This document shows positions 2,149-26,107 of a DNA stretch of 27,743 nt, one piece after another. The notes under the pieces were generated by a model, which saw only the letters and a list, made by a program, of their open reading frames with translations, searched no databases and was not told where the DNA came from. Positions within the stretch are counted from its first letter, which is position 1. The number at the start of each line of letters is the position of its first letter. Source of the DNA: a virus (taxonomy: Duplodnaviria; Caudoviricetes); IMG/VR virus record IMGVR_UViG_3300020414_000298, positions 1 through 27,743 of that record; one strand, written 5' to 3'. A program made the position numbers and the translations under genes.

Positions 2149-4761
2149 TCAATTAAGTAGTTGTTGTGCGTAAGTAAACCGCTTGCCTTCATGCCCATAA
2201 CCCCAGTATTGAACTGATGCGGCCCGCAGGTCGCGTGCTCCAAAACCAGGCTGGGTGAAGACTTTGTAAGCCCAAGGGTTACGTTTTTTCATTTCCCATT
2301 TCATAGCCTGTAGCTGTTCATCAACAGTGGCTTCTGTAATGGGCTTGCCTAAGTAAGATTCGATATTGCGTAAACGGAAGTGATTTCTTTCAGCGTCATC
2401 CATCCAGCTAATAAGACCGCCATTGCGGTCAGAGCCATCACCCATGACTTCGTCCCAGGTACGCTGTCCACGCCAGCCAGATTCTTGCTGGATGTTGCCT
2501 GCTAGATAGGCTGCACCTATATCGGTAAAGCCCAAAGCTTTTAGCTTTGCATATCCCTGCCTCATAGATACAGTGGCAAGACCGCCTTGGGATGGAGTGG
2601 CGCCAGGGTTAAGACTTTGCAGCCTCAGCTCTGTCAACGATGGTTTGCCATAACGCTTAAGTTGTGCGTCAATAAAAGCAGCGTCAGGCATATCCAAAAA
2701 TGCTGCTATATTAGAACTTCTATTGGAAACCTTACCTGTTGTCATCAGAGATTGAACATCAGCTTCAAGCTGTGCAGGTGTGATAAAACTATCTGTATCT
2801 GCATCTAAGCTAATTCTATGTCCAAATGTAGACATAGTTTTTCTAATATCAGTTACCGATTGGGTAGTAAAATTTTCTGATATTTGACCGATGGAGGCAC
2901 TTGTAGAATACATAGGCGCTTTGAACGTCTGAGGAGCGCCAACTTCTTTTCGATGAAGTGTATATTTGTCTTGACTCATGACCTCGGCTCTAATACTTGT
3001 AACAAGTCTGCCAAGTTCATTGGGCTTATTTACAAGTGATGGGTCTGCAGCCAATTCAGACATAAGACGTTCGTGCATCTCTTCGTAAGCAGCATCCATA
3101 CGGAATGCCATTTCAGCCAATGCGTCGGGACTGATTGTGGCTTTATTAGAACCATCTAAAACAAATTTATCAAGTCCTTTCTTAACTGGTGCAAGTGCCT
3201 CAGTTACTTTGTCAGACCACACCTTTTCAGGATGAGCTTTAAGCGCAGCATCTTGCTGCTCTTGAGTAATCAAATTCTCATCCTTCATAGATTGGATTTG
3301 AGCGAGAGTTTTAGTACGAAGAGAGAACTGGGCGTTAGGGTCGTAGTTGTTTCCCTTAGAAAAAATCAATGCAGCAGCTTGCTGACCTGCGAGGGTGCCC
3401 GTACTCCTAAGCTCATTAACTGCCTGTTGAACAGTTATTTCACGATTAATAAAACGTTCTTTAACATTCTGAATGCGGATACCTTCTTCAGCATTTTTCA
3501 GATTAAATAACTGAGTTGCAGATGTGCGAGAAGCTCGTTCTGCTTTATCAAAGATGTGGTCATACTCTTTCCCAAGGAGGATGCCATTGGAAAGACGGTG
3601 ATCGCGAAGACGCCTAATAGCTTCAGTGCGACCATCTTCGTTAAGGTTGTTGACATATTCTTGAAGTGTTTCTGCAGTAGCCGCAGTGCTATTAACACCG
3701 TTGTATCCAATGTTGCCGTGTACAGCAGCATCTACAGCTTCATCGAAGTTTGTACCTACAGTTTCAAATGTTGCAGAATCTGCTAGGTTAGAAACTATCC
3801 CAGACCATTCAGCTTTGTTAGCTGCTTGTACTTTTTGAACATGCTGAGCAGTGACCTGCCTAACAGTATTTTGAATTGCATTAAGAGCTGCTGGCTTAAA
3901 CTTTTCAGCGATCTTGATACGATCGAGACCACGCAATCCAGCTTTCTCTGCAAATTTTTGGACGATCCTTTGGGCATCTAGATAGCCATCAGCACCAGGA
4001 CGAATAAGACCCTGAGCTGAAGCATCTAAAAGCACAGGCTCAATCATTGCAGCAGCAGAATCAAGGTTGCCATTGACGCGGCTGATTTGTTTGAAGAACG
4101 TTGATTGCTGAAGATCAGATGCAATCTTTTGATCAATAGGATCGTTGCTGTCTCGTAGATCAGCGACAGAGTTATTGATTGCCGTAGATTCAGCTTTAAT
4201 AGCTGTATTTTCTGCATCAACAGAGCTAGTATCTACAGGCTCATTGTCAAAGAAAGTTGAGCCTAGTCCAATAGCTTCGTTAGCTTCGTTAGCAGCTTCA
4301 AGTTTTTCTGCTGCCTCAAGCTTAAGCTTCATGACACTGCCACCAACCTCTAAAAGGCTGTTGACAGCAGATCCAATGAATTTGATCTTAGCCGCTTGCA
4401 GATTGTTTTTTGCTTGCAATGCAGCGAAGTCAACTTGCATTTGAGCACGTTCATGGCCGTGCTCCATCTTCATAGTGTTGGAGTCAAAAAGCTGTTGCGT
4501 TGCTAGTGCATCTCGCTCTTGACCTTGCTGAACCTTCTGAGCACTAGAAGCAATCCTCTGTTTAGATTCAAGCTCTAAGTTTTCTTGCTGCTGTTCACGA
4601 TTGATTTCTCTCGAAACAGCCTGCCTATCTTGCTCACGTGCTTGCTTCCAACCCTGCAGTTGCTTATCAGATGATTGTGCTTTGACAGGATTAAACTTGA
4701 CGCTAGTATTTACACCTTTATAGCGTGCGCCGGTTACTTCAGATTTGTAGATACGACTCAT
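2149..4761 (-). CDS. Internal virion protein (gp15-like) with C-terminal phage tail lysozyme-like domain
   Basis: 870-aa helical Q/A-rich ORF. The C-terminal GAAYLAGNIQQESG...GLISW...EQLQAMKWEM segment resembles Phage_lysozyme2. Synteny supports the call. Confidence 0.75.
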   Translation of the reverse strand: MSRIYKSEVTGARYKGVNTSVKFNPVKAQSSDKQLQGWKQAREQDRQAVSREINREQQQENLELESKQRIASSAQKVQQGQERDALATQQLFDSNTMKMEHGHERAQMQVDFAALQAKNNLQAAKIKFIGSAVNSLLEVGGSVMKLKLEAAEKLEAANEANEAIGLGSTFFDNEPVDTSSVDAENTAIKAESTAINNSVADLRDSNDPIDQKIASDLQQSTFFKQISRVNGNLDSAAAMIEPVLLDASAQGLIRPGADGYLDAQRIVQKFAEKAGLRGLDRIKIAEKFKPAALNAIQNTVRQVTAQHVQKVQAANKAEWSGIVSNLADSATFETVGTNFDEAVDAAVHGNIGYNGVNSTAATAETLQEYVNNLNEDGRTEAIRRLRDHRLSNGILLGKEYDHIFDKAERASRTSATQLFNLKNAEEGIRIQNVKERFINREITVQQAVNELRSTGTLAGQQAAALIFSKGNNYDPNAQFSLRTKTLAQIQSMKDENLITQEQQDAALKAHPEKVWSDKVTEALAPVKKGLDKFVLDGSNKATISPDALAEMAFRMDAAYEEMHERLMSELAADPSLVNKPNELGRLVTSIRAEVMSQDKYTLHRKEVGAPQTFKAPMYSTSASIGQISENFTTQSVTDIRKTMSTFGHRISLDADTDSFITPAQLEADVQSLMTTGKVSNRSSNIAAFLDMPDAAFIDAQLKRYGKPSLTELRLQSLNPGATPSQGGLATVSMRQGYAKLKALGFTDIGAAYLAGNIQQESGWRGQRTWDEVMGDGSDRNGGLISWMDDAERNHFRLRNIESYLGKPITEATVDEQLQAMKWEMKKRNPWAYKVFTQPGFGARDLRAASVQYWGYGHEGKRFTYAQQLLN

Positions 4762-5582: not shown

Positions 5583-6025
5583 AGTTTTACAATTTCATAA
5601 TATGGAAGAGCATCAGGTCCAGTTGGGACTGTACGCAAAGCGCGAAAACCTAGATGCTTAAGTAGTTTGTGGTGGACATCATTTCTGGCATCAGCCAGAT
5701 TCCATAAAAGCTTGTAATCAGATTCGACCTCCCTGAGCCAAGCTTTAGCTCCACGCACAAAGGTGTGCGGTTTGGATGTAATCAGTGGAGTGCATAGCAT
5801 CCAGATTTGACCTTCTGTAGGGCTTAATCGAACGACGCCAGCAATACCAGCTGGACTACCGTCAGTGTCATGAAAGAACGTAGCGTGTTCACTAATGAGC
5901 ACCCCAAAAGGAACATGAAGGGGGGACGAGCCTGTACCCCTCAGTTCCTCTAGGTCTTCCTTGCGTAGATTGTTAAGCACCAACAAACCATCTTTATATG
6001 TGGCAGTGCGGTGATACTTAGACAT
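5573..6025 (-). CDS. T7 gp13-like protein (acetyltransferase-like fold)
   Basis: 150 aa with NLRKEDLEEL, IWMLCT and LWNLADARNDVHHKLLKHLGF motifs. It lies directly after tail tube B. Confidence 0.7.
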   Translation of the reverse strand: MSKYHRTATYKDGLLVLNNLRKEDLEELRGTGSSPLHVPFGVLISEHATFFHDTDGSPAGIAGVVRLSPTEGQIWMLCTPLITSKPHTFVRGAKAWLREVESDYKLLWNLADARNDVHHKLLKHLGFRALRTVPTGPDALPYYEIVKLCA

Positions 6026-9000
6026 TACATCAGGCGAACGCCTCGGTTGTTGTAGTGACCTTCCCAGCGATAACTGGTGATAGATGCGGGAAGTGGGTCA
6101 GATGCCTTAATAGTAAGAGTGGCATAATCGCCACGGCTATACACAGGAATCTGTTGTGTGCTGATCTCATCAATAGCAGCAGCGTTAGCTGAATAGATAT
6201 CAGCAACAGTTGTATCAAGGTCGACTGATTTAAGGTCGTAACCTCGTCTTTCAATATCTACAGAGTATCGACCTGAATAATACAAATCGAGATAGACATT
6301 TTCAATCATCGGAATGTTAAGGCGGTCAGCACGCTTTTCTTCTTTGACAAAGAAAGATGGAAGCTTGACCTTCATGTCATAGTCCAAACCAAGAATAAAA
6401 TCTTGATCGGCTAGATCCTCATCGATAGTCACAAAATAGCCAGTTGAATCAGATTCAATGTCGGGGCTACGATAAAGAGTGCTGTTACCGTCAAGGGTGA
6501 GAATAACGGTTGGCTGAGTATCAACAACAAACGATCCAGCTGGGAACCGAATAATCTTTTTACCAGCCGCCGAGGATGCAGCAACAGTGGTCTGTGATTT
6601 CAGAAGACTGTGGTCAAGCCGTGGGGCAAATCTGCTACCAAATGCAGTAATTGGAGAAGTACGAGGATCGTCTAACATCTCCATTTTTAGGAGAACATGA
6701 GACGTGCCATTGCGACAAACAATGTATCCAGTGTCATGGTCAAAGCCAATACTTTCTACAGGGCTAGGCATGATCCATTTAGACCATCCAGCGAGGCTGC
6801 GCTCATTGCCTGTATTGAAGAATTTGAAAGTCCAAAGGGTTTTAGATCCATCACCAAAAATGCACAAGCTGTTGTTGGGGCTAGACGCTGCAAGCGTTAA
6901 TCCTGGTGGGATGTACTCAGGAACAATGCGGGTGTTTTCACTGACCACAGGACGGTTGTCCACAGAGTCCACAGCCATTTCATAGACCTTGGTGAAGGTG
7001 TCAGCCTCAGTGCTAAACAAGATGGAAACACCCGTTTCAAGAGGTGCGATGTCACTGCTGTAGCTGTACTGAGACAGCTCTTTGATGGTGACAGTAGAGG
7101 GACCAAAGGCTGTCTCGGAGGTGGACAGCAGGAACTGGCTGTTTTCAGCAAACAGCAGCAAACCCTTAGGAGTACCTAATGCTGCCTTCAGAGAGGCTGG
7201 TTTAGTGCTACTAGCTGACATATCAATAGGGTCAGCATCACTAACAGCGATAGCTGAATCAACAAAGAAATCAAAGAAGTCACCTGGCTGGCTAAGTACA
7301 ATAGTATCTTCTGACAAGAATCCAAGGCGATTCATGTAGAAGACCATGCCTTTAATTTTGTTGCCAACGAAAGTAGGATTAGGATTACTTTCCTCATCGC
7401 CAACATCTCTGGATGCCCAGCTCAGTTCATCATTGTAGGTAGATGAAAGTTGTCGAACTGTAAAGGTACCATTCGCCTCACGAATCATTGCATGGGGCAT
7501 AGTGTTGGGATTCAAGTCCGTAGTAATCCCAGGCTTATGAGTTTCTTCCCAGGAACCCTGACCAGGGATTTCTCCAGAGGCAGGTACAAACTTAACGTAG
7601 TAATCATCAGCATCTGATTCAGATGAGTTTCTTACCAACAAAATAACGCCTTTGACACATTGCCTAGGCAGAAGACTTACATCGTTGACAGAGCCTTTAA
7701 TACCATAGAGAGCGTTATTAGTAGTACCACCTTTAGTTTGAATGTTAAAGTCTCTACCATCAGTCCGCCTGATAACGATTACGTTACCGACAGGAGTTGC
7801 AGAATATCCAGATAAGGCTTGGATTGAACTTGTTAAACTAGATACAATCAAGTTTACATCGAGAGTACCTGAAGTTGCGTTGGCTGGGGTGGTATAAGTC
7901 GCAGTCGCCTCAGCCGCATAGCTATAACCGAAAGCCTCATCTTCGACGCGGATCGTATAGGATTGCCCGCTGAGAGTAACGTTTACAGAATCTCCAATAC
8001 GCCAGTTAGATCCACCATTGGTTAAAGTAACTCGGGAAGCATAGACACTTTTGTAAGAAAAACTGCTGGTTGATTGGGCCTGTTGGACTGAAGAAACTTG
8101 GAAACTTAAGCCATAAGATGATCCAGCGGGTGCGATATGTCCACTGGATAGAGTAGTATTTGCTCCGATAGTACCAGAATCACTAATTACATAACCTGTG
8201 GCCCACTCACCTGTGCCGTTAGTTGTATAGTTTTGGATTGTAGCAGTAGGAGAACTATAGTTTTTAATGTCTGGATTGCTGAGAGCATTCTGTACTCTCA
8301 CCTCAACTCTGACAGTTATATTGCCAGCGGGAGTTGTTGAAGTGAAGTTACGATATAGATAACTACCAACAGCATAGTTTTCCGCTGATCCAAAATTTAC
8401 TGTGCCCCAAAGCTGAGGTCCTGAGTAAGCGAAATCAGGAATAGAACCACCGCGCCATTCAACTGCAGTGGGAAAGAAAGCACCATCTGTTTCTTCAGTT
8501 ACAAGAGTTGGTGAACAGCTAGTAGTTAATGTAAAACCTAAACCAGTCTTGGATCCAGAGTTTTCAGAAAATGTTTGAGTGCCAGCTTTTCCACAGTTAC
8601 CGTTGGTATCGTCTTCAAAAGAACCTGGGCTTACAGAAAGTTTACTAGCACGATATACTTTCTCCTGCTGCGTCTGCTGACCATCTTTTAGAAAATCAAC
8701 TGTGTATTGTGTGTTGTATGCAACTTGGTTGACAACAACTAAAGCTTCAGGATTGGTCTCATCATCAGAAGCGGCATCCATAGTTACATTCTTCTCAGCG
8801 TTACAGAGAAGTGTGTAATCGTTGATGGTCAGTTGCTGGATATTTTTTGGATCAGAAACTTTTAGGTATTCACCTGCAGAAGAGGCGATGTTGACGGTCT
8901 GCTCAGCTCCAGTATCGGCGTCCCAGACACGGATGCTGGTAGAACCACTGCTGGTGTAAATCGCAGAGACATACCTCTCAGTTCCGTTACGGAAGATGTT

Positions 9001-9195
9001 GAACCACTTAGCCCCCTCAGGGACGTTGGTAGCCAGCTCTCCCACAAACTGCGTAGGCGGACGCTTACGGCAGCCAAAGGTGGGATCGAGAAGTACGTTC
9101 TCTGCCTCTTTCACCTGGCCGGGAAGCTTGAGCGGATCAGGCTGCTGACTTACACCTCCCAACAGGTTCGGGACAATTTGAGAGATAGCGGCCAT
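6025..9195 (-). CDS. Tail tubular protein B (nozzle, T7 gp12-like)
   Basis: 1056 aa. N-terminal ISQIVPNLLGGVSQQPD...GCRKRPPT, plus NPNPTFVG, NRLGFLS, DADPID and WSKW motifs. Confidence 0.92.
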   Translation of the reverse strand: MAAISQIVPNLLGGVSQQPDPLKLPGQVKEAENVLLDPTFGCRKRPPTQFVGELATNVPEGAKWFNIFRNGTERYVSAIYTSSGSTSIRVWDADTGAEQTVNIASSAGEYLKVSDPKNIQQLTINDYTLLCNAEKNVTMDAASDDETNPEALVVVNQVAYNTQYTVDFLKDGQQTQQEKVYRASKLSVSPGSFEDDTNGNCGKAGTQTFSENSGSKTGLGFTLTTSCSPTLVTEETDGAFFPTAVEWRGGSIPDFAYSGPQLWGTVNFGSAENYAVGSYLYRNFTSTTPAGNITVRVEVRVQNALSNPDIKNYSSPTATIQNYTTNGTGEWATGYVISDSGTIGANTTLSSGHIAPAGSSYGLSFQVSSVQQAQSTSSFSYKSVYASRVTLTNGGSNWRIGDSVNVTLSGQSYTIRVEDEAFGYSYAAEATATYTTPANATSGTLDVNLIVSSLTSSIQALSGYSATPVGNVIVIRRTDGRDFNIQTKGGTTNNALYGIKGSVNDVSLLPRQCVKGVILLVRNSSESDADDYYVKFVPASGEIPGQGSWEETHKPGITTDLNPNTMPHAMIREANGTFTVRQLSSTYNDELSWASRDVGDEESNPNPTFVGNKIKGMVFYMNRLGFLSEDTIVLSQPGDFFDFFVDSAIAVSDADPIDMSASSTKPASLKAALGTPKGLLLFAENSQFLLSTSETAFGPSTVTIKELSQYSYSSDIAPLETGVSILFSTEADTFTKVYEMAVDSVDNRPVVSENTRIVPEYIPPGLTLAASSPNNSLCIFGDGSKTLWTFKFFNTGNERSLAGWSKWIMPSPVESIGFDHDTGYIVCRNGTSHVLLKMEMLDDPRTSPITAFGSRFAPRLDHSLLKSQTTVAASSAAGKKIIRFPAGSFVVDTQPTVILTLDGNSTLYRSPDIESDSTGYFVTIDEDLADQDFILGLDYDMKVKLPSFFVKEEKRADRLNIPMIENVYLDLYYSGRYSVDIERRGYDLKSVDLDTTVADIYSANAAAIDEISTQQIPVYSRGDYATLTIKASDPLPASITSYRWEGHYNNRGVRLM

Positions 9196-9197
9196 AA

Positions 9198-9803
9198 CTA
9201 CGGACGGAGGAGAACGTTAATAGGTCGGTGTGCGGATTTCTGATAGGTGTCATCGCCATCGCCATCAGCGAAGATTGTGTAGTTACCCTGCTGCGTGTCG
9301 TACTCCAGAAGAGTTGCACGAGCAATGGTCTCTTCGCGTTGGCCGAAGCTCACAGCTTCCTGGGAGCCAACGGAGCGACCGGCAAAAACGTTTGCTGCAC
9401 GAATGGTGATGTAGTTCTTAAATGCTTCGGGGAGATCCTCAAAGTCAAAAAGCCATTGGACATCCAGCTCTTGCTGTTTATCGAATGTGTAGGTGTGCTT
9501 AACACGGTCGTACAGCTTGCCGTTGCGGATCACGGTTTGCGTGCCGTCACCGGGCTTGGTGTCGAGCTGCAGCACGTTGTCAGGAATGACGATCTCTTTG
9601 TTGCTATCAGGAGTAAACGGATACCCACGCTCCGTGTTGTACTCCCAGCCCTCAGCAAGGACTGCAATAGTAATCTCATCTAGGATTTGTTCAGCCATCT
9701 CCACCAACGGATTGCCTGACTCCAGGTTGGTGACAGGAGCTTGGCCGATGTTAGAAATGATGGTATTGACGGCTTGTAGTTTAGTCGCCTTTTTAATTGC
9801 CAT
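9198..9803 (-). CDS. Tail tubular protein A (adaptor, T7 gp11-like)
   Basis: 201 aa with LQAVNTIISNIGQAPV, EGWEYNTE, GKLYDR and FEDLPEAFKNYI motifs. Confidence 0.92.
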   Translation of the reverse strand: MAIKKATKLQAVNTIISNIGQAPVTNLESGNPLVEMAEQILDEITIAVLAEGWEYNTERGYPFTPDSNKEIVIPDNVLQLDTKPGDGTQTVIRNGKLYDRVKHTYTFDKQQELDVQWLFDFEDLPEAFKNYITIRAANVFAGRSVGSQEAVSFGQREETIARATLLEYDTQQGNYTIFADGDGDDTYQKSAHRPINVLLRP

Positions 9804-9860: not shown

Positions 9861-11746
9861 TCAGGCAGCTTGGAGAGAACCAGCCACAGAAACACGCAGG
9901 GTGTCGGCACCCATCGCGAGTTTCCCGACCACAAGGTCACCTTGGTATTGGCGGAAAGTCCAAAATTTTCATTCTGGCCCAGACTATATCTTCATCCCAG
10001 AGGGATGCTGGACGCTAGTGGCGTATTACATGAGGAGCGCCTCATACCGCCTAGTCGTTGCACGTTCCTCTCACGCTTGAGAGGCTTCGCTCAGGATTGC
10101 CTTAGCTATATGCCTTAGGTTTCCCTGAATTCATCCAGTTGCACTTATACGTTGCCGCATAAGGACGCCTAATTGACGTTGAAATCACCAGAGGTGGTTT
10201 GGATCGAAGGAGCCACGGAGGTGAGAACACCCGCCGCTTCTCTATGAAACACCAATCCGGCAAGGTTGGTGTTGTTCACTGCGTAGTCATTGTTTTCACC
10301 AGTGACAGCAGCGTTGTTCGATGCAGTCTTGCCGTACTGGGCAGCCAGCACGTTGGACTTCAGGATTCGGATTCCGGCAATCTGGTAGATGCCGTCGCCC
10401 GTTGCAAGCGAACCGCCGGAAGCGCCAAGATCCCGAGACAGGATGTTGGTGTCCACAGACGAAATCAATTTGTAATCAGTTATTCCATTATTTCTAATGG
10501 CCCAGACTATATCATCATCCTTTAAGGATGCCGGACGCTATTGGTGTATTACATAGGACGCTTCCTAAACCACCTAGTCGTTGCACCTTCCTCACAAGAT
10601 CGTGTGAGGCTTGGATCAGGATTGCCGTAGGTTTTACCCCTTAGGTTTCCCTGAGTTCATCCGGTTATTCGATTGCCATTGCTGACAAAAGCAGCGTTAC
10701 TTTTAGTTCACTGAGTAGGGGAGAGCACGCAGACGCGGCCGTCCTGAGGAGCATTACGGGTATCGAGAGTTGCAGCAGCGGTGAACAGACCATCAACGAT
10801 TGCTTGTGCGTTGTTGGTGTTACCAGAACCGATGTTGACTTGGAAGCCACCAGGCTCACCAGTCACCACAGAGTTCTCGGTGGCAGCCTTACAAAGGACG
10901 CGACAAATGCGGTCGTCCATATGCAGCGCGAGGGCCTCGCCGATTTGTTTTGACAGCTCAGATCTCGTGTCAAATTGAGAAAGAACGCTGTCTAAATCGT
11001 AGGTAAATTGAGAACTAATGAGCAAATCATCCATCAGGATGGTCTTCTCATTTGCCTTCAGCGCGGTATCGCCCAGGATCGGTTGTCCGGGGGTGTGATC
11101 GTGTAAATCTGTACTTTCATACAGCACGGACTATATCTTCATTCGATGTGAATGTCGGACGCTAATGATGTATTACGCGAGACGCTTCTCGCACCATCTA
11201 GTCTCTGAACCTTCCCTTTAAGCGTAAAGGGCTTGGCTGCTGATTGCCATAGCCATGGCCTTAGGTTTCCAGCAGTTCATCCGATTTAAGCTGGGCGTCA
11301 AATCCACCCAGCGCTGAGCTTACCCGTCAGCAGGAATTGCTTGGACTTACCACCACGGAGGGTGTAGTTACGCACAAGACCTTGGAAGATCGTGGCGGAG
11401 TTGAAAGCGGTGAATACTTCCGTGTTATCCATACTTTCGTATGGCACTGACTATATCTTCATCCACATGGGATGCTGGGCGCTAATCATGTATTACGTTC
11501 CACGCTTGGAACACCATGTAGTCGATGCACCTTCCACCAGAGCGCTGGTGGCTTGGCTCAGGATTGCCATAGCATTAGCCGTAGGTTTCCCTGAGTTCAC
11601 CCAGTGTGCAACTGTCATTACTGACAGAGGCGGCAAAGTTATTTACCGGAGAAAAGCTTCAGAGCGGTTGCATACTTAGTTGCGTAAGTATTGCCCTGGT
11701 TACCATTCACGGCATTAGGCCGTGTAATGTTTGCCATGTTAGTCAT
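9861..11746 (-). CDS. Major capsid protein (T7 gp10-like), five exons: join(11746..11645, 11420..11306, 11099..10710, 10476..10176, 9951..9861), 332 aa
   Basis: Exons of 102+115+390+301+91 = 999 nt form one frame: MTNMANITRP...ALKLFSG|EVFTAFNSATIF...GKSKQFLLTGKLSAG|YHTPGQPILG...VCVLSPTQ|YYKLISSVDTN...TTSGDFNV|QYQGDLVVGKLAMGADTLRVSVAGSLQAA*. These are gp10-family motifs, and the gene lies between scaffold and tail tube A. An alternative start is at 11737. Confidence 0.93.
9952..10175 (-). ncRNA. Group I intron 4 of the capsid gene (224 nt, no ORF)
   Basis: 5' splice site AACGU|CAAUUAGGCGU (P1 ACGU/GCGU with U.G wobble). P3 CUGGAUG/CGUCCAG, P4 UUCAGG/CCUGAG, P7 GACUA/UAGUC, J8/7 AAGAUA, P9 GAAA loop. 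Ends ...UUUCCG|CCAAUAC, restoring V-Q-Y-Q-G-D. Confidence 0.92.
10477..10709 (-). ncRNA. Group I intron 3 of the capsid gene (233 nt, no ORF)
   Basis: 5' splice site CAGU|GAAC (P1 CAGU/GCUG; P10 GUAA/UUAC). P3 CCGGAUG/CGUCCGG, P7 GACUA/UAGUC, P9 CCAUUA-GAAA-UAAUGG. Ends ...AACUG|AUUACAAA, restoring Q-Y-Y-K-L. Confidence 0.92.
11100..11305 (-). ncRNA. Group I intron 2 of the capsid gene (206 nt, no ORF, no P2)
   Basis: 5' splice site GCUGGGU|GGAUUUGACGCCCAGC (7-bp P1 with U.G). P3 UCGGAUG/CGUCCGA, P4 CUGCUG/CAGCAG, P7 GACUA/UAGUC, P9 CUGUAU-GAAA-GUACAG. Ends ...UACACG|AUCACACC, restoring G-Y-H-T-P-G. Confidence 0.93.
11421..11644 (-). ncRNA. Group I intron 1 of the capsid gene (224 nt, no ORF)
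   Basis: 5' splice site CCGGU|AAAUAACUUUGCCG (P1 CGGU/GCCG; P10 ACUUU/GAAGU). P2 CUGUCA-GUAA-UGACAG, P3 CUGGGUG/CGCCCAG, P4 CUCAGG/CCUGAG, P7 GACUA/UAGUC, P9 CCAUAC-GAAA-GUAUGG. Ends ...AACACG|GAAGUA, restoring F-S-G-E-V. Confidence 0.93.
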
Positions 11747-12540: not shown

Positions 12541-13371
12541 TTAAAGAAGATCGTTGCTCACCGCAAGTCGGGCTTCGACATCAGCGCGGAAAGCTGGATC
12601 GGTGTTGTAATTGGGATTGGCAATATCGCGAGCAAGCTCGGCATTGCTTCGGTACGGCTGAACGCCTGAGCTGGCTTTCTGTCCGCTGATAAGCGGAGCT
12701 TCATAGCCAACGTCGCCACGGAAGCGATTGTTCAGCGCCTCTACTGCAAAGCGAATTGCAGCAGGGTTGTTGGTTGCAGTAACTGCATTGAAGTTTTCGA
12801 TCTCGGTCTGATCAAGGTTCTGACCAGCCCAAGAGATCATCTCCGTATAGGCCTCTTCGCCACCAATCGATTGCTTAATATCGGCAATGGCTGACTCTTG
12901 AAGCTGGGCTTGCTGAGCAGTGGCTTGAGACTGTTGATAATACTGAAGGTAACTTTTGATGAGATCTTTTTGATCCATCTGCGCGAGTCGCTCGACAGCT
13001 TCGTCAGAGATGGAGCCCGTCTCATCGAACTCTTTACCGAGCTGCTGCATGTAGTCAACAGTCTCGTTAGTTTCCTCAGGCTCGGGCTGTTCATCAACGG
13101 TCTCCTCAGCTTCAGTGGTTTCTTCAGTGTTCTCTTGGCCTAGTTTCTTCTCAAGCTCTTTGTATGCTTTGAGTAGATCCTCGCTAGATTTGAACTTGCC
13201 ATCAATAAGACCGACGCCTTCATTCTCAGCATCTGTCTGTTCAAACTGACGAGCTTTGTCTTCAGCTTCTGCCTGTGCAATGCGCTCGCCTTGAGCAAGA
13301 GCCTTGGCTTCAGCAGCCTGTTGCTCAGGAGTGAGACCGTCAGAGGTGGTATCAAATGTGGATGTGGTCAT
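12541..13371 (-). CDS. Capsid assembly scaffolding protein (T7 gp9-like)
   Basis: 276 aa, acidic, with GKFKSSEDLLKAYKELEKKLG, GGEEAYTEMISWA and YNTDPAFRADVEARL motifs. Confidence 0.92.
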   Translation of the reverse strand: MTTSTFDTTSDGLTPEQQAAEAKALAQGERIAQAEAEDKARQFEQTDAENEGVGLIDGKFKSSEDLLKAYKELEKKLGQENTEETTEAEETVDEQPEPEETNETVDYMQQLGKEFDETGSISDEAVERLAQMDQKDLIKSYLQYYQQSQATAQQAQLQESAIADIKQSIGGEEAYTEMISWAGQNLDQTEIENFNAVTATNNPAAIRFAVEALNNRFRGDVGYEAPLISGQKASSGVQPYRSNAELARDIANPNYNTDPAFRADVEARLAVSNDLL

Positions 13372-19499: not shown

Positions 19500-19838
19500 T
19501 TAGTCCCAAAAAGATTCCCAGCCCTCTGGCTCTTTGCCTCGGGTCCAGCGAATCTCTTCAGTAAGAGGGTTGACGTGGATTACATGGACACCTTCTGCCA
19601 CTGATGCGCCTGTGGATTTCCAGCACTTGTTTTGATAGCGCATGGATTTCACATCACACTTGAGCTGCTGCTCACCCTGTTGGAGGATGAGATCAACAGC
19701 TCCCGTGCAACCGGCGTTGGAATAAACCTCTGCGCCACGTCGCCATGCCTCGCGGATGACGTGCAGCTCCCAGAAGTCTCCTTTTCTATTTGTATCAGTG
19801 GCAATCGGCCCAGCTTTCTCCGATAACGGATTCAGCAT
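19500..19838 (-). CDS. Free-standing PD-(D/E)XK endonuclease, I-Ssp6803I-like
   Basis: TNRKGDFWE...RRGAEV...AVDLIL...LKCDVKS follows the KGD...G..V...DL....K.(Q/D)VKS pattern of the group I intron-associated PD-(D/E)XK nuclease family. Aligned by eye. Confidence 0.6.
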   Translation of the reverse strand: MLNPLSEKAGPIATDTNRKGDFWELHVIREAWRRGAEVYSNAGCTGAVDLILQQGEQQLKCDVKSMRYQNKCWKSTGASVAEGVHVIHVNPLTEEIRWTRGKEPEGWESFWD

Positions 19839-25063: not shown

Positions 25064-26107
25064 TCAGGCTGCCCTAAAGATCTGCCCGTTGAGGTAGATG
25101 GCTCCGTCAGGAAGGACTACAGGCTCATTTGCTGCTGCCTTGGTAGGGGCATCAACAGGTGAGGGCAGAGATGCCTGAGCATCCATTGCCGCTTGGTTGT
25201 CCACGTCGCAATACTTCATTACGACTTCAAAATCCTTCCAGCCACCAACAGCCATCAGTTCACGAGGCTTCATCGTGCGGCCATACCAAGTTGCCCCGGT
25301 TGATCGCAACGACTTCCAAAGCACCTCGTCACCCAACATGCACTTGCGGCGCACGCGCTCAAAGCGACGTAGCAAGCGCTCACCATCTGGCACGCCACGG
25401 CTGTTAAGCCAATGCTGACCAAACACTTTTTCGTTCGGGTCATCAGCTTCATCAACCATGGTCTGGCAGATCTCACGGATGCGTGAGTGGATCGCTGTTG
25501 TACGGCCTGCCTCTTTGCCTTTGTTAATCAGACCTCTCCTCGGATCACCTCCGACGCGGATGTAACCCATTTCTAGATCGATGTCTTTGGCACGCAAGCG
25601 AAGCAATTCGCTTTGACGAACCATGGTGTAGGCAGAGAACAAGATGGCCTTTGCCAGGTACGGCATCTCAAAGAAATCATTGGCAACACGGGCAAGCTTT
25701 TCAACTTGCTCTTGCTTAAGCCAAACAACACTTTGAGGTGTTGGCTTTTCCTTGATCTTGAGATCAGGCATGTGGACGTTATGTCCACCAGCTTCACGGG
25801 TGAAGTTGAGCATGGTTGAGCCTGCTGTTATCACCTTGTTCAGTGTGCAGTTACTCATGCTCGGACGTTTCTTTTTCACATCAGCTTTGAGAGCATTCCA
25901 CCAGTAGCCGTTAGCCATGTTGGTGATCGACTCATTGCGTCCGCAAAAATTGAGAACGTGTTGGGAGTTGTAGTAGTTCGTCTTAGCCGAAGCCTTGCCG
26001 GACCACTTGTGTTCCATGGTGTAGTCGTACATCTGTCCGACAGTGCGCAGCCGAAGTTTTTTGGAATCCTCGGCCTCTGCTGTGCGAACAGCTCTGCGTG
26101 TGGGCAT
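25064..26107 (-). CDS. int: Tyrosine recombinase / integrase
   Basis: 347 aa. Box I YTMVRQSELLRL, K in NKGK, box II KSLRST (K replaces H of HxxR), GGW and catalytic Tyr in MKYC. Confidence 0.9.
   Translation of the reverse strand: MPTRRAVRTAEAEDSKKLRLRTVGQMYDYTMEHKWSGKASAKTNYYNSQHVLNFCGRNESITNMANGYWWNALKADVKKKRPSMSNCTLNKVITAGSTMLNFTREAGGHNVHMPDLKIKEKPTPQSVVWLKQEQVEKLARVANDFFEMPYLAKAILFSAYTMVRQSELLRLRAKDIDLEMGYIRVGGDPRRGLINKGKEAGRTTAIHSRIREICQTMVDEADDPNEKVFGQHWLNSRGVPDGERLLRRFERVRRKCMLGDEVLWKSLRSTGATWYGRTMKPRELMAVGGWKDFEVVMKYCDVDNQAAMDAQASLPSPVDAPTKAAANEPVVLPDGAIYLNGQIFRAA

Follow-up and report, generated by a model that had tools for sequence, protein, structure and literature searches.

Four Group I Introns without Open Reading Frames Interrupt the Major Capsid Gene of a T7-like Phage

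Results and Discussion

The Interrupted Gene and Its Setting

The window, by which we mean the whole stretch of DNA analyzed (27,743 nt), is a 27.7-kb fragment, 61% complete, of a T7-like phage genome whose genes are read on the minus strand. In genome order, it encodes an RNA polymerase, an integrase, a single-stranded DNA-binding protein, endonuclease I, a primase/helicase, DNA polymerase, an exonuclease, ribonucleotide reductase, the portal and scaffold proteins, and then tail and internal virion proteins. The slot between the scaffold and tail tubular protein A genes contains only fragments matching major head protein families. The open reading frame (ORF) list has no full-length capsid ORF, as the preliminary description of this DNA had stated along with its warning that automated annotation would miss or fragment the gene. 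Exact removal of four inserts, together 887 of 1886 nt, restores the predicted 999-nt frame encoding 332 amino acids plus a stop codon. The features of the locus are as follows.

12541..13371, minus strand: head assembly/scaffold gene, upstream of the capsid gene
11645..11746, minus strand: exon 1, 102 nt, codons 1-34, ending in U
11421..11644, minus strand: intron 1, 224 nt, inserted ahead of codon 35 in phase 0, with a stop at its codon 2; P1 of 4 bp, P10 of 5 bp, P9.0 with 3 of 3 pairs
11306..11420, minus strand: exon 2, 115 nt
11100..11305, minus strand: intron 2, 206 nt, interrupting codon 73 in phase 1, with a stop at its codon 3; P1 of 7 bp, P10 of 3 bp, P9.0 with 3 of 3 pairs, without P2
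10710..11099, minus strand: exon 3, 390 nt, Gp10A-like capsid domain
10477..10709, minus strand: intron 3, 233 nt, interrupting codon 203 in phase 1, with a stop at its codon 1; P1 of 4 bp, P10 of 4 bp, P9.0 with 2 of 3 pairs
10176..10476, minus strand: exon 4, 301 nt
9952..10175, minus strand: intron 4, 224 nt, interrupting codon 303 in phase 2, with a stop at its codon 3; P1 of 4 bp, P10 of 3 bp, P9.0 with 3 of 3 pairs
9861..9951, minus strand: exon 5, 91 nt, with the stop codon
9198..9803, minus strand: gene for tail tubular protein A, immediately downstream of the capsid gene

The interrupted gene is the major capsid gene of a T7-like phage of the Syn5/P60/S-CBP42 group. Its T7 gp10-like identity is given by a PF21703 domain match and by the scaffold/tail tubular A gene order, and the Syn5 capsid structure (4BML) is matched at an E value of 2.6e-57. 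The spliced protein is 67-73% identical to the capsids of P60, S-TIP28, Syn5, and S-CBP42, and it is the single capsid match in the whole record, itself 61% complete. Because these nearest named capsids all belong to Synechococcus phages, a marine Synechococcus host is likely, and cyanobacteria are the most likely host group.

The capsid gene has as its immediate neighbors in the window an outer-membrane-protein-like gene, a 34-codon ORF, and tail A; none of these is an endonuclease gene, and there is none in the interval before tail A. No excess of sigma-70 promoters was found near the capsid gene. The 34-codon ORF, between the scaffold and capsid genes, has no Pfam or PHROGs match; directly 5' of it lies a glutamine-II riboswitch match (12172-12118 and 12111-12007, minus strand) scoring 33.6 bits against an Rfam cut-off of 33 bits. 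Between the scaffold and capsid genes of the relatives L040, L043, L046, L064, and L076 are ORFs that we take, from their N-terminal sequence, to be psbA-like, which would put a known intron host gene beside the capsid gene. Elsewhere in the window, tail tubular protein B (6025-9195) is 1056 aa long against a profile of about 793 positions and loses alignment with close relatives near 8580-7930, a variable insertion, and an integrase gene is located at 25064-26107, the closest intronless relative (G001) being classed as a complete provirus.

All four inserts are preceded by an exon T and have G as their last base, in keeping with the first account of them. Their identity as group I introns was checked with a covariance model: Rfam RF00028 matches each of the four over the full model at 82.1-100.1 bits (E values 1e-19 to 4e-25; gathering cut-off 50 bits). 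RF00028 has no further match in the 27.7-kb window, and the DNA polymerase gene is uninterrupted. The junction positions originally proposed are right, as are the numbers, but the codon placing given for introns 2, 3, and 4 had to be corrected: introns 2 and 3 each cut within a Tyr codon (phase 1) and intron 4 within a Val codon (phase 2).

When the spliced protein was compared with 120 homologous capsids, counting at each junction those that cover it, no gap was found within 5 aa on either side of any of the four junctions (118/118, 120/120, 120/120, and 115/115 gap-free, respectively). Two database capsids align with it without a single gap column, at 311/332 and 290/332 identical residues, and an uninterrupted allele (L005), 98% identical at the amino acid and 89% at the nucleotide level, matches the junctions exactly. 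Several other U/G splice pairs up to 15 nt away would also keep the frame; the homologue junctions and L005 favor the chosen ones. Frameshifting or stop read-through instead of splicing was rejected, as the lengths of all four inserts leave a remainder of two when divided by three and stops come early in each. The observation of a capsid gene with four introns is thus confirmed.

Ribozyme Structure and Covariation

The claim of intact core helices with compensatory changes is borne out by an alignment of 58 base pairs across 36 of 41 distinct capsid introns, the remaining 5 being near-duplicates that were left out. The elements named in it are P3 to P9, the additional helix P7.1/P7.1a, and the pairing of the P6a loop with the P7.1a loop. 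All 58 pairs are formed in introns 1, 2, and 4 of the window and 54 of 58 in intron 3. Across the 36 introns, 97.2% of the alignment cells are paired and 38 of the 58 pairs have changes on both sides, with covariation present in P3, P4, P6, P8, and P9. None of 500 shuffles equaled the observed value, a test inflated by the kinship of the sequences but in agreement with the two-sided changes and with slid controls, which pair at 32-38%. P7 is 100% paired, and the G-C pair of the guanosine site is invariant in 36/36.

An extra P7.1/P7.1a helix between P7 and P3, and a P11-type contact with the P6a loop, are marks of subgroup IA. In the capsid introns P7.1 is 100% paired, P7.1a 96.8%, and the P6a-P7.1a loop-loop pairing 93.1%, with the strands of the last swapped between the loops from intron to intron. 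On this comparative evidence, we assign the capsid introns to the subgroup IA type and read the loop-loop pairing as the P11-type contact. P2 is missing from intron 2 and from several other introns at the same site (codon 73).

Each intron also appears fitted to its own exons. P1 reaches at least 4 bp with the intron's own exon in 41/41 cases versus 481/1316 with exons from other sites; the corresponding figures for a P10 of at least 4 bp are 29/41 and 320/1316, and 39 of the 41 have at least two of three P9.0 pairs. An in-frame stop falls within the first five codons of 37/41 introns, compared with 29/82 in the other frames. Covariation, exon-matched guides, and early in-frame stops together point to working ribozymes, and we consider the introns to be real, well formed, and very likely functional.

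No homing endonuclease ORF was found on either strand of the window introns, the longest sense stop-free run being 49 codons. A hidden antisense endonuclease, as in the mycobacteriophage LittleE, was considered for intron 1, whose open antisense frame has no family match. Open frames of any kind are present in only 5/41 introns, and searches with the antisense ORFs returned no PHROGs match and one weak, unrelated Pfam match (E 0.04).

Splicing

Group I chemistry suggests the following course, its steps inferred from that chemistry. The guide would pair with the end of the 5' exon, forming the U.G pair in P1; a guanosine held in P7 would attack the 5' splice site; and the terminal G, with P9.0 and P10, would set the 3' splice site. 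A stop within three codons of the start of each intron would free ribosomes, leaving every unspliced form non-coding. Splicing of all four introns is strongly inferred, and we hold it highly probable that these ORF-less, IA-type introns self-splice from late mRNA and were gained singly, likely by DNA transfer. Of the four sequential splicing events first envisaged, the splicing is thus upheld to this extent, whereas a fixed order is not required.

RNA runs were examined by contig (X15, X16, X17, and X18). An X15 contig skips exactly intron 2; its exon 2 side agrees with the window at all of 49 nt, and there are 21 differences in 332 nt of exon 3. A separate contig of the same run lies inside intron 2 and has four variants in common with intron-bearing DNA of runs X3-X5. 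The intronless DNA junctions in X4 and X5 end exon 2 otherwise than the X15 junction contig does, and the X15-type exon 2 end is also present in 21/93 intronless alleles. In X18, a contig about 91% identical to the window (15 differences in about 165 nt) skips exactly intron 4, and in X16 and X17 a relative of intron 4 is still attached to its diverged exons. These exact-junction contigs are suggestive only: because they differ from the window and intronless alleles exist, such alleles could supply them. In another X16 contig, an exact match to the 3' end of intron 2 (window 11100-11152) gives way to sequence unlike the window, representing either the same intron in a different gene or a chimeric read.

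A Family of Introns at Eleven Sites

Far from standing alone, the four-intron gene is the most loaded member found of a larger family. Pattern scans recovered at least 56 distinct related introns of 196-233 nt in T7-like capsid genes, inserted at 11 sites (codons 29, 35, 73, 106, 114, 120, 177, 203, 301, 303, and 308). The four window sites are thus occupied in other phages too, along with seven more; the intron 4 site (codon 303), for example, is also occupied in L141 and L142. Among the loci found, five have two introns and only the window and a second assembly (L143) have four. More distant intron-bearing capsids are 38-55% identical to that of the window.

Among loci selected by exon 3 alone, introns are carried by 11/79 viral and 5/33 metagenome loci, two sets that overlap and contain duplicates and from which one partial intron at a contig end was dropped. 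A core-pattern search placed 19 of 44 loci in T7-like capsid genes. A pattern for the 5' half of the intron, which allows inserts and covers about half of the collection, placed at least 34 of the 128 matches listed in such genes, all short, while 11 of the 14 measurable psbA copies listed hold inserts of at least 450 nt. A Fisher test was given no weight, since redundant contigs enter its counts. None of the 56 capsid introns is long enough for an endonuclease gene.

In T7-like phages the capsid gene is therefore a hotspot for introns that has been overlooked and that gene callers fragment. Within the gene, the insertion sites are in moderately conserved stretches (23rd-95th percentile), so there is no strong hotspot rule. 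None of 73 intron matches in cellular genomes is near any of the query genes. Four cultured relatives have the capsid gene in a single piece, and no T7-like capsid intron in a cultured phage is among the matches listed. The nearest intron relatives in named phages are in cyanomyovirus psbA, a vibriophage terminase gene, and jumbo enterophages.

Two further loci were recorded along the way. A T7-like genome with a capsid intron (G006, locus L297) has a second group I intron at 4341-4551, apparently lying within the ribonucleotide reductase small subunit gene. On one viral contig (L113), a stretch of 3.2 kb contains six lower-scoring matches to the intron profile; the gene concerned is not one of those in the window and may have many introns.

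Gain and Spread of the Introns

The window introns are mutually 61-72% identical, which excludes recent local duplication of one of them, and the four were likely gained separately. Same-site introns in capsids with only 50-52% identity share 85-88% identity with intron 3. In L006, intron 1 is identical and there is no mismatch from 11701 to 11377, against 86% identity over the capsid coding sequence as a whole, a tract that fits DNA-level transfer with co-conversion of the flanking exons. We envisage that the introns would spread by recombination or break repair between co-infecting phages, with a free-standing endonuclease that acts in trans as a possible trigger, as in the collaborative homing described for S-PM2 psbA and for T7-like phages (PMC6083498, PMC3984707, PMC10448857). 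Such a trans-acting nuclease is, in our judgement, a reasonable candidate route with a little under an even chance of being correct; plain recombination we regard as somewhat unlikely.

A candidate for such a nuclease was seen in an intronless relative (L021), where a free-standing endonuclease VII/HNH-type gene at 2240-2737 is directly 3' of the capsid gene and may encode a capsid-targeting homing endonuclease. It has relatives, but only one of them is at another viral locus. Across five related genomes, HNH_3 was found in 1/5, Endonuclease VII in 3/5, and the L021 type in 0/5; no endonuclease adjoins the capsid gene in G008, the one of these whose context was examined. In the window itself, an ORF of 112 aa at 19500-19838 (minus strand) was rejected as the mobilizer: its PD-(D/E)XK match is weak (E 0.0014), it is 8 kb away between the polymerase and exonuclease genes, and it is also present in the intronless G001. 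The equivalent slot in G008 is filled by an endonuclease VII-type ORF, suggesting that the polymerase-exonuclease gap may be an exchangeable slot for free-standing nucleases. In L073, an ORF of 98 aa upstream of the capsid gene is HTH-like and not HNH, and was dismissed as a nuclease.

The introns could instead splice and have spread by RNA-level reverse splicing to other positions in capsid genes or by intron-intron recombination, not by endonuclease homing. In keeping with this, 0/34 capsid introns among the matches listed have an ORF with a pattern that permits inserts, related cores occur at different sites (one intron at codon 73 and one at codon 308, for instance, are sisters), and all eleven sites are in one highly transcribed gene. 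In the tree built with P1 included, the introns at sites 203 and 303 each group by site; this site monophyly is lost in the core-only tree, where the window introns do not group by site (rough bootstrap support), hinting at retargeting or core exchange. Against an RNA route are the identical exon tract flanking intron 1 in L006, which is the outcome expected of DNA co-conversion, and the free-standing endonuclease gene directly after the intronless capsid gene of L021. We consider this route unlikely and retain single gains by DNA transfer as the preferred reading.

A more speculative proposal, which we think rather improbable, is that the introns are selected armor, each breaking the recognition site of a free-standing, capsid-targeting endonuclease of competing phages, for which the capsid gene would be a contested target. 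It would fit the 11 sites, the contrast between ORF-free capsid introns (0/34 listed) and psbA inserts (11/14), the co-conversion at intron 1, and the endonuclease gene behind the L021 capsid gene. If true, the introns would be selected in co-infection and not passengers, and the four-intron allele would be the most armored.

Integrity of the Four-Intron Allele

Introns that are real singly could have been brought together in one gene by chimeric assembly of a population with one to three introns each. Short-read contigs underlie the data, other intron-bearing loci carry only one or two introns, and DNA runs X3, X4, and X5, from three studies, have intron copies alongside intronless junctions. 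Neither a single read nor a Logan contig spanning all four introns was found. Yet the second assembly, L143, holds all four on one contig and, with one base different from the window in the capsid gene, differs at 22 positions in tail A (window 9243-9657). This pattern suggests a point of recombination shortly downstream of that gene, and L143 may come from the same population as the window. In DNA run X1, moreover, each of the four introns is covered by contigs without differences: one unbranched contig carries introns 1 and 2, the contigs with introns 3 and 4 have similar depth (6-11), and no intronless joint is among the matches listed for that run. Misassembly into a chimera, raised from the outset as a case that would undo the observation, we accordingly judge improbable.

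That the gene is dead or decaying in a defective phage or prophage, spliced too poorly to make virions, is very improbable: the genome has an integrase and a closest relative classed as a provirus, four splicing steps would burden the most abundant late transcript, and skipping of exon 3 (390 nt) would keep the frame, but the exons are without stops or frameshifts and encode a protein 98% identical to that of an intact allele at 89% nucleotide identity, the intron helices and guide pairings are intact, and copies of the introns that are the same or nearly so turn up in sequencing runs of several studies and different years.

Significance

It is likely that a compact phage genome of lytic type can express its most abundant structural gene by way of four splicing events. 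The family to which these introns belong, at least 56 short introns at 11 sites and polymorphic within populations, is a natural system in which to ask how group I introns that lack an endonuclease move, and whether the introns of phages are neutral, carry a cost, or are under selection. At 196-233 nt and with varied guides, these ribozymes are also a compact set for splicing studies. There is a practical side as well. Use of the major capsid gene as a marker has been proposed for marine cyanopodoviruses (PMC9860041). Since it is interrupted in about one in seven of the close relatives sampled (11/79 and 5/33, in overlapping sets with duplicates), gene callers and amplicon or protein-based surveys will fragment or miss such genes.

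Comparison with Known Systems

Among the closest known systems are the psbA introns of S-PM2, S-CBWM1, and S-SRM01, which belong to the same intron family (about 73-75% identity to S-CBWM1 intron 2) and occur in cyanomyoviruses whose presumed host group is that of the window phage. The S-PM2 intron is described as mobilized by a free-standing endonuclease, F-CphI (PMC6083498). In the psbA system the introns number one or two, and an endonuclease ORF is often present (11 of the 14 measurable copies listed have a long insert), whereas the window has four introns without ORFs or an adjacent endonuclease, in a podovirus structural gene. The introns of T7-like DNA polymerase genes, for which collaborative homing has been described, are also of group I (PMC6083498, PMC10448857); they are in a replication gene, while the polymerase gene of the window is uninterrupted.

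Capsid introns themselves have precedents outside the T7-like cyanophages. The Cluster J mycobacteriophage LittleE likewise has an intron in the major capsid gene, with a U before it and a final G, and its splicing was demonstrated by RT-PCR and protein sequencing; the same paper cites another capsid intron in Tuc2009 (PMC3706429). It differs in being a single intron of 820 nt with a putative endonuclease ORF, in a siphovirus of Mycobacterium (PMC3706429). [quoted passage not shown] These are gut phages of 145-192 kb with introns genome-wide (PMC7886860), whereas the introns of the window are ORF-less and no further Rfam intron is present in its 27.7 kb.

Twort (Herelleviridae) reportedly also has a multi-intron gene. 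In the Bastillevirinae, polymerase and terminase genes with two or three group IA introns are known, with exon skipping (PMC11878797). These are large myoviruses of Gram-positive hosts in which 32/45 introns encode a nuclease, and the capsid gene is absent from the accessible part of that intron account (PMC11878797).

The statement that no equivalent was known in T7-like cyanophages stands as far as open-access full texts go, where we found no report of capsid introns in this group (most subscription papers being outside that search); its framing was too narrow in view of LittleE and the crAss-like genome. The mechanism is textbook group I, and capsid introns in phages have been published. 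What appears to be undescribed is their presence in this T7-like marine host group, the concentration of four introns without ORFs in a single gene, and the family, spread over many sites, to which they belong.
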